Source: Dictyostelium discoideum (Eukaryota). From it: a stretch of 64,000 nt of DNA. A model generated the notes under the pieces. That model worked only from the letters and a program-made list of their open reading frames with translations, did not search any database and was not told where the DNA came from. The stretch is from positions 6,208,001 through 6,272,000 of the forward strand of contig CM000151.3 of NCBI GenBank assembly GCA_000004695.1, read 5' to 3'. Shown here piece by piece: positions 38,401 through 38,980 of the stretch. A program made the translations under genes and the position numbers. Position 1 is the first letter of the stretch; each line of letters opens with the position of its first letter.

Positions 38401-38980
38401 AATATTTGTTAGCAAGTGTGTTAACCACATTTCTGGCACCATAAAGAGATGATAATAATTAAAATGGGCAATTAAAATTTTAGGGTGATGGGTATGTGTG
38501 GGTTCGAATAAAAAAAGATTTTATATATAATTCTATTGATTGATTATGCGTGTGTGGGTGTATGATTTTAAAAATAGATATTTTTTATTTAAGAATGTTT
38601 GAGATTTGATTTTTTTTAAATAGAACCACACCACACACTCTTTGTTTTTTTTTTTTTTTATTTTTTATTAGAATGATATTATTATTAATTAATTGAATCA
38701 CAATCAATAAGAGTGAATTACATTATCTTTTAAATAATCAATATTCTATTATATTATTATTTATTATTAATTCCTTCAATCATTTTGGGAATGGCAATAT
38801 AAAAAATATCTATTTTTAAAATCATACACCCACACACGCATAATCAATCAATATAATTATATATAAAATCTTTTTTTATTCGAACCCACACCCATCACCC
38901 TAAAATTTTAATTGCCCATTTTAATTACTATCATCTCTTTATGGTGCGAGAAATGTGGTTAACACACTTGCTAACGAATA
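38401..38980. repeat. Large near-perfect inverted repeat / foldback: arms about 188 bp (38401-38588 and 38801-38980), spacer about 212 bp
   Basis: The right arm is the reverse complement of the left arm, with about 3 substitutions and one 6-bp indel. The arms are GC-richer than flanks (GGGTGATGGGTATGTGTGGGTTCGAAT). The element sits in the divergent intergenic region between cdc123 and the 39229 gene. Confidence 0.85.

Follow-up and report, generated by a model that had tools for sequence, protein, structure and literature searches.

The region described here lies within a stretch of 64,000 nucleotides (64 kb) of the Dictyostelium discoideum genome, which was analysed as a whole and is called the window in the following. 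It is the intergenic region between two divergently transcribed genes, the ATG codons of which are separated by 1,223 bp (~1.2 kb). The gene on the left is cdc123, with its first exon on the minus strand (38005..37445). All database matches of this exon were to PF07065/Cdc123 proteins, which confirms the name that the gene had been given in an initial annotation of the sequence. No dictyostelid proteins were found among the matches to Cdc123 in the protein collection, where the top match had 41% identity, and an exact look-up of two ORFs of the window in the protein collection gave no match. The gene on the right is an ORF of 170 codons on the plus strand (39229-39741; ORF 39229 in the following). 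It encodes a hydrophobic N-terminus, and a Pfam family was not found for it.

Between the two genes there is a long inverted repeat. When the left arm was compared with the window by BLASTN, its reverse complement was found at 38982-38799 with 95.7% identity over 188 columns (E ~1e-84). A global alignment of the two arms gave an identity of 97.8%, with a substitution divergence of 2.2% plus one indel, and the whole element has a length of 582 bp. The foldback of near-identical inverted arms that had been proposed from inspection of the sequence is thus borne out by both methods, but several of its dimensions had to be corrected. Instead of about three substitutions, the alignment contains four (38407 T/C, 38435 G/C, 38455 A/G and 38533 C/A), and the single indel, located within GGG[TATG]TGTGGG, comprises 4 nt and not 6 bp. 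The spacer, previously given as 212 bp, and the right arm, previously placed at 38801-38980, have the extents listed in the table together with those of the other features. When one mismatch is tolerated, pairing of the arms extends to 38397-38986.

Features of the inverted repeat and its surroundings (positions in the window)
Feature	Position	Strand	Description
Left arm	38401..38588	+	188 nt; the G-rich strand is the plus strand; the C-rich strand reads outward to cdc123
Spacer	38589..38798		Unique, AT-rich; 210 nt, 19% GC
Right arm	38799..38982	-	184 nt; reverse complement of the left arm with 4 substitutions and 4 nt fewer; the C-rich strand reads outward to ORF 39229
T12 tract	38388..38399	+	Directly upstream of the left arm
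GT-rich cluster A, GGGTGATGGGTATGTGTGGGTT	38483..38504	+	Overlapping KGKGKGK half-sites; mirror copy at 38883-38900 is AACCCACACCCATCACCC
GT-rich cluster B, GTGTGTGGGTGT	38550..38561	+	Three overlapping KGKGKGK matches; mirror copy at 38826-38837
ATAATCAATCAATA module (= TATTGATTGATTAT; TTGATTGA on the other strand)	38534..38547	-	Adjoins cluster B; mirror copy at 38840-38853
Third, diverged copy of CA-box plus ATAATCAATCAATA	38043..38073	+	Beyond the repeat, at a distance of 38-68 bp to the cdc123 ATG; orientation as in the right arm
CA-rich element of the spacer, AACCACACCACACAC	38624-38638		Followed by a T-run at 38641-38665
B-box-like GGTTCGAAT	38501..38509	+	Matches 9/11 of GGTTCGANNCC, without the terminal CC; mirror copy at 38878-38886 (-)
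AAATGTG heptamer ("TGTG box" sequence)	38951..38957	+	61 nt downstream of the DUSE-like ACCCATCA; mirror copy at 38426-38432 (-)

The flanks beyond the arms are not significantly related, and both the outer and the inner boundaries of the repeat are therefore sharp. A continuation of the palindrome into the flanks was not significant, as equal scores were obtained in 15 of 300 composition-preserving block shuffles and the alignment in question is of low complexity. No further copies of an arm or of the spacer were detected in the 64-kb window by BLASTN. The element is also the only complex inverted repeat of the window; the remaining long inverted repeats are low-complexity or simple-sequence runs. 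The GC content of the arms is 27-28%, compared with 19% in the spacer, 7% in the right flank and 22.4% in the complete window, in agreement with the earlier remark that the arms are GC-richer than their surroundings. In both arms, GC islands are interspersed in AT-rich DNA, and two of these islands per arm are GT/CA-rich. Short GC islands in AT-rich DNA are the typical look of Dictyostelium cis-regulatory sequence.

Near-identical arms around a unique spacer support the earlier description of the element as an inverted duplication. The accompanying statement that this duplication is "very recent" does not fit arms that are 2.2% substituted and differ by an indel. Both the mutation rate and the nucleotide diversity of D. 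discoideum are very low, and against this background such a divergence is large on a population scale, unless it has been shaped by gene conversion. Our expectation is thus a fixed palindrome and not a polymorphic one, provided that its age is not masked by gene conversion between the arms.

Coding potential can be excluded as an explanation of the arms, because stop codons break all six frames and the ORFs that overlap the element are all short. The same is true for a pair of structured RNA genes. When folded alone, an arm behaves like its dinucleotide shuffles on either strand (z = -0.23 and +0.59); as neither arm outfolds shuffled sequence, the arms are not structured RNA genes, and structure arises only from the pairing of one arm with the other. 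The element as a whole, folded as one strand, reaches -300 kcal/mol versus -96 +/- 6 in shuffles (z = -32), but this stable hairpin is a trivial consequence of the inverted repeat. A search of the whole window with Rfam at gathering thresholds yielded a tRNA-Arg 19 kb away as the sole match, and lowering the stringency to E <= 10 returned nothing relevant in the region of the element.

The initial annotation had also pointed out a B-box-like motif. The consensus of the B box is GGTTCGANNCC, and GGTTCGAAT, which occurs exactly once per arm and is absent from the rest of the window, is a true match to 9 of its 11 positions. What does not hold is any further resemblance to a tRNA gene or another Pol III type-2 gene: ARAGORN detected no tRNA, there is neither an A box nor a cloverleaf, and no Rfam match accompanies the motif. 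This candidate was thus rejected. GGTTCGAAT may be a chance extension of the GT cluster or a TFIIIC site.

[quoted passage not shown] The window contains 55 matches to KGKGKGK versus 29.6 +/- 5.5 expected. Sixteen of these 55 are found in the cdc123/ORF 39229 intergenic region, at 38042-38894, which corresponds to 13.1 per kb versus 0.86 per kb overall. Paired half-sites a few hundred bp upstream of a gene, the arrangement of a GBF-type promoter, are present in the sequence. Three of the five independent clusters lie outside the duplicated DNA (38042-38050, 38367-38373 and, in the spacer, 38626-38637). Because of these additional clusters in unique DNA, the enrichment is more than a product of the duplication. 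Elsewhere in the window, further KGKGKGK clusters were seen at 30279-30471, 45773-45842 and 57062-57140, the last of which consists of GGGGTGG repeated with a period of 24 nt and is probably a tandem repeat.

A second type of motif links the arms to their surroundings. The composite CACAC-N(3-20)-TAATCAATCAAT occurs at three places (38043-38072, 38535-38556 and 38831-38852), with 0.00 expected in shuffles, and within the window it is confined to the cdc123/ORF 39229 intergenic region. The third of these modules, close to the cdc123 start codon, is either an older or a convergent copy of part of an arm. Its position just outside the palindrome is an argument that the arm sequence originated locally. 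The spacer, which had been called CACACAC-rich, does contain one CA-rich motif (AACCACACCACACAC), but the word "rich" overstates its content. The AAATGTG heptamer occurs at chance frequency and is not regarded as functional.

Both arms carry these motifs in mirror symmetry. Since the arms face outward, each of the flanking genes is presented with the identical array in the identical orientation. A long oligo-T tract is found 30-70 bp outward of each arm, on the sense strand of the neighbouring gene; such tracts are a usual feature of Dictyostelium core promoters (PMC6161686).

We tentatively favour the view that ~185 bp of upstream regulatory DNA have been duplicated in inverted orientation, specifically at this locus, and that the result may act as a bidirectional enhancer. 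The duplication would have originated from a fold-back or template-switch error in replication and would have turned the cdc123/ORF 39229 intergenic region into a palindromic promoter. Its arms would be candidate protein-binding enhancer modules, probably developmental ones of the GBF type, which could drive or modulate transcription both ways, in the manner of the sigN palindromes. On this view, age, or gene conversion from arm to arm, and not mobility, would account for how similar the arms are. Two points speak against an enhancer: KGKGKGK is a loose motif, and GBF-type developmental control is not expected for cdc123, which is a housekeeping gene. Still, the element is most likely neither a transposon nor an RNA gene but ordinary gene-regulatory DNA that was duplicated locally. 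The earlier suggestion that it may affect the regulation of the flanking genes is in line with the reading that the sequence supports best; the effect itself is one that we infer.

A precedent for this arrangement exists in Dictyostelium. For the group-2 sigN genes, Vicente et al. (2008) described intergenic promoters that are palindromic and have, on either side, two pairs of GBF sites (regions A and B); these were proposed to regulate both genes (PMC2257962). As in that case, the cdc123 palindrome has divergent neighbours, and the intergenic region between them is an inverted repeat with GBF-type sites. The two cases differ in that the sigN genes are inverted paralogues that were duplicated together with their promoter, whereas here only ~185 bp of upstream DNA are duplicated. 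Since cdc123 and ORF 39229 are no paralogues of each other, the simple copying of a gene along with its promoter does not account for the duplication. Moreover, the function of the sigN promoters was tested with reporters, while the cdc123 palindrome is known from its sequence. The element is thus best regarded as a further case of an established type, namely a palindromic promoter formed by local inverted duplication.

As a structure, the element is an ordinary feature of an AT-rich intergenic region and does not represent a new kind of element. If the regulatory reading is true, it would provide a clean natural case of a promoter module that was duplicated with inversion. Two divergent genes that are unrelated would then share a single set of binding sites for factors, which would be a small and concrete route to bidirectional regulation. 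The locus is suited to probing the sharing of enhancers, and also a possible contribution of long genomic palindromes to RNAi in Dictyostelium.

The strongest alternative, which we nevertheless consider unlikely, is a non-autonomous transposon, either a miniature inverted-repeat transposable element (MITE) or a foldback element, of ~580 bp with terminal inverted repeats (TIRs) of ~185 bp and a transposase supplied in trans from elsewhere. Many properties of the element would fit a MITE: its size, the lack of coding capacity, the sharp outer and inner boundaries, a GC content above that of the surroundings, and long, near-identical TIRs that bound a short non-coding element. A flanking duplication can be read as well, either as the palindromic AATATT or, alternatively, as TTAAA. 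However, AATATT, at 6 bp the best flanking direct repeat, has an equal or a better counterpart at 46% of the AT-rich positions used as controls, and as direct repeats of at least 6 bp are this frequent in such DNA, the candidate target-site duplication is at the level of chance. There is, furthermore, just one copy of the element in the 64-kb window. The GC islands of the arms contain the same kind of GT/CA motif as the surrounding unique DNA, and the combination of CA-box and ATAATCAATCAATA recurs just outside the repeat; both observations point to a local origin.

Against a MITE, the searchable literature also yielded no description of such elements in Dictyostelium, and no more than 1.5% of the genome consists of the catalogued families of DNA transposons (Tdd, DDT and thug) (PMC5633606). 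Patterns derived from the arms were scanned against metagenome and prokaryotic genome sequences, where they gave either no match or matches of 18-22 nt that are due to chance, in contigs with a GC content of 31-51%, and a full-text literature search with six arm-derived strings gave only unrelated matches to mouse and human primers. Hairpin RNAs that derive from MITE or foldback elements are known from human Made1/mir-548, and long inverted repeats are catalogued in LIRBase (PMC8728187). Like the MITEs that yield hairpins, the element is short and non-coding, has long inverted arms and a unique loop, and would give a long hairpin if transcribed; it differs from them in that its motifs are akin to those of the unique promoter DNA around it and in that its candidate target-site duplication does not exceed chance. 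A transposon with regulatory-looking motifs would, however, have the same appearance in a single window.

Transcription of the element is the basis of another alternative, a gene for a long hairpin RNA (hpRNA), to which we assign a rather low probability. In this case, Pol II would initiate downstream of the T12 tract and transcribe the two arms in one piece, and the resulting duplex of ~185 bp would be diced by DrnA or DrnB into 21-nt siRNAs. Such a gene is compatible with an origin by duplication as well as by transposition. The near-perfect stem with its folding energy of -300 kcal/mol (z = -32) is what a hairpin RNA would show, and D. discoideum does turn inverted-repeat transcripts into siRNAs, for example those of hairpin RNAi constructs (PMC2257962). 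At the left edge of the element, the T-rich tract at 38388-38399 is followed by a G at 38408 on the plus strand. The start sites of D. discoideum pri-miRNAs and of other Pol II transcripts are preceded by a T-rich tract, a motif that the left-edge T12 resembles (PMC6161686). Against this, T-runs next to a G are frequent in the genome, and the spacer has a CA-box and a T-run of its own, which would start a transcript with only one arm. None of the 13 D. discoideum miRNA sequences in Table 2 of Meier 2016 maps to the window, and strings of 10-11 bases from two places in the arms do not occur in any hairpin sequence of the Liao 2018 supplement. As an arm has no other match in the window, a target of the hpRNA is not visible there.

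Going by its sequence, there is a slim chance that the element is something less familiar, that is, either an endogenous long-hairpin siRNA gene with a hairpin of ~590 nt that begins at the left-edge T-tract, or a B-box boundary that recruits TFIIIC between a housekeeping and a developmental gene. To our knowledge, endogenous long-hairpin siRNA genes are a class that has not yet been described in Amoebozoa. Extra-TFIIIC (ETC) sites and B-box boundary elements occur in yeasts, and the tRNA genes of Dictyostelium have external B boxes downstream. With these sites, the locus shares an isolated GGTTCGAAT that lies between divergent genes and does not belong to a tRNA gene. It departs from them because GGTTCGAAT, as a putative site, matches only 9 of 11 positions, lacks the terminal CC and overlaps the GT cluster. 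The tRNA gene of the window, tRNA-Arg(UCU) at 19029-19101 (-), shows the arrangement with an external B box downstream that is characteristic of Dictyostelium: a B-box-like GGTTCGAT is located at 18989-18996 (-) and starts 33 nt downstream of the 3' end.

Very unlikely is a pair of back-to-back DUSE promoters of small ncRNAs similar to Class I, with one outward transcript per arm. [quoted passage not shown] The boxes were compared with sites from the authors' MEME list of 113, in which true DUSEs have the consensus WCCCA[CT]AA. In all but one of the sites used for the comparison, position 7 is an A, and position 8 is an A or, rarely, a T, whereas both arm motifs (ACCCACAC and ACCCATCA) have a C at position 7 or 8. 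The number of AAATGTGG motifs in the window is that expected by chance (5 found versus 4.6 expected), and CCTTACAGCAA has no match within 2 mismatches near the element. The 11-nt motif of Class I RNAs, CCUUACAGCAA, was found seven times in the whole window when up to two mismatches were allowed (<=2), which is a chance frequency, and all of these matches are more than 3 kb (>3 kb) away. The repeat stops 25 nt past the AAATGTG heptamer, the two sequences that follow downstream are unrelated, no Rfam match was obtained, and neither arm is structured by itself. The locus thus resembles the Class I genes (PMC7919456) in its intergenic position and in a C-rich box ~60 nt upstream of AAATGTG, but its C-rich boxes break near-invariant positions of the DUSE and are not followed by an RNA body with 11-nt motif and terminal stem. 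As the boxes fail the comparison with the MEME sites and the search for the 11-nt motif was negative near the element, DUSE promoters were rejected.

An artefact of assembly or cloning, i.e. a fold-back chimera, is scarcely credible even in a gapped assembly (a run of 100 N is present at 11939-12038), because artefactual fold-backs are perfect and spacerless while these arms differ at five places (4 substitutions and 1 indel) and enclose a unique spacer of 210 nt, and because the gap is 26 kb from the element. The gap itself comes after a long trinucleotide repeat of the ATT type.

Some further observations were made in the window. The segments 9880-10060 and 11720-11900, which are 1,843 bp apart, look like coding sequence, are closely similar and apparently belong to tandemly duplicated genes; each contains ATAATCAATCAATT, which gives rise to weak BLAST matches to the arm. 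On the minus strand at 40649-44464 there is an ORF of 1,271 codons that is extremely rich in homopolymer runs of N, Q and S and in EK repeats, a composition that is common in dictyostelid low-complexity proteins.
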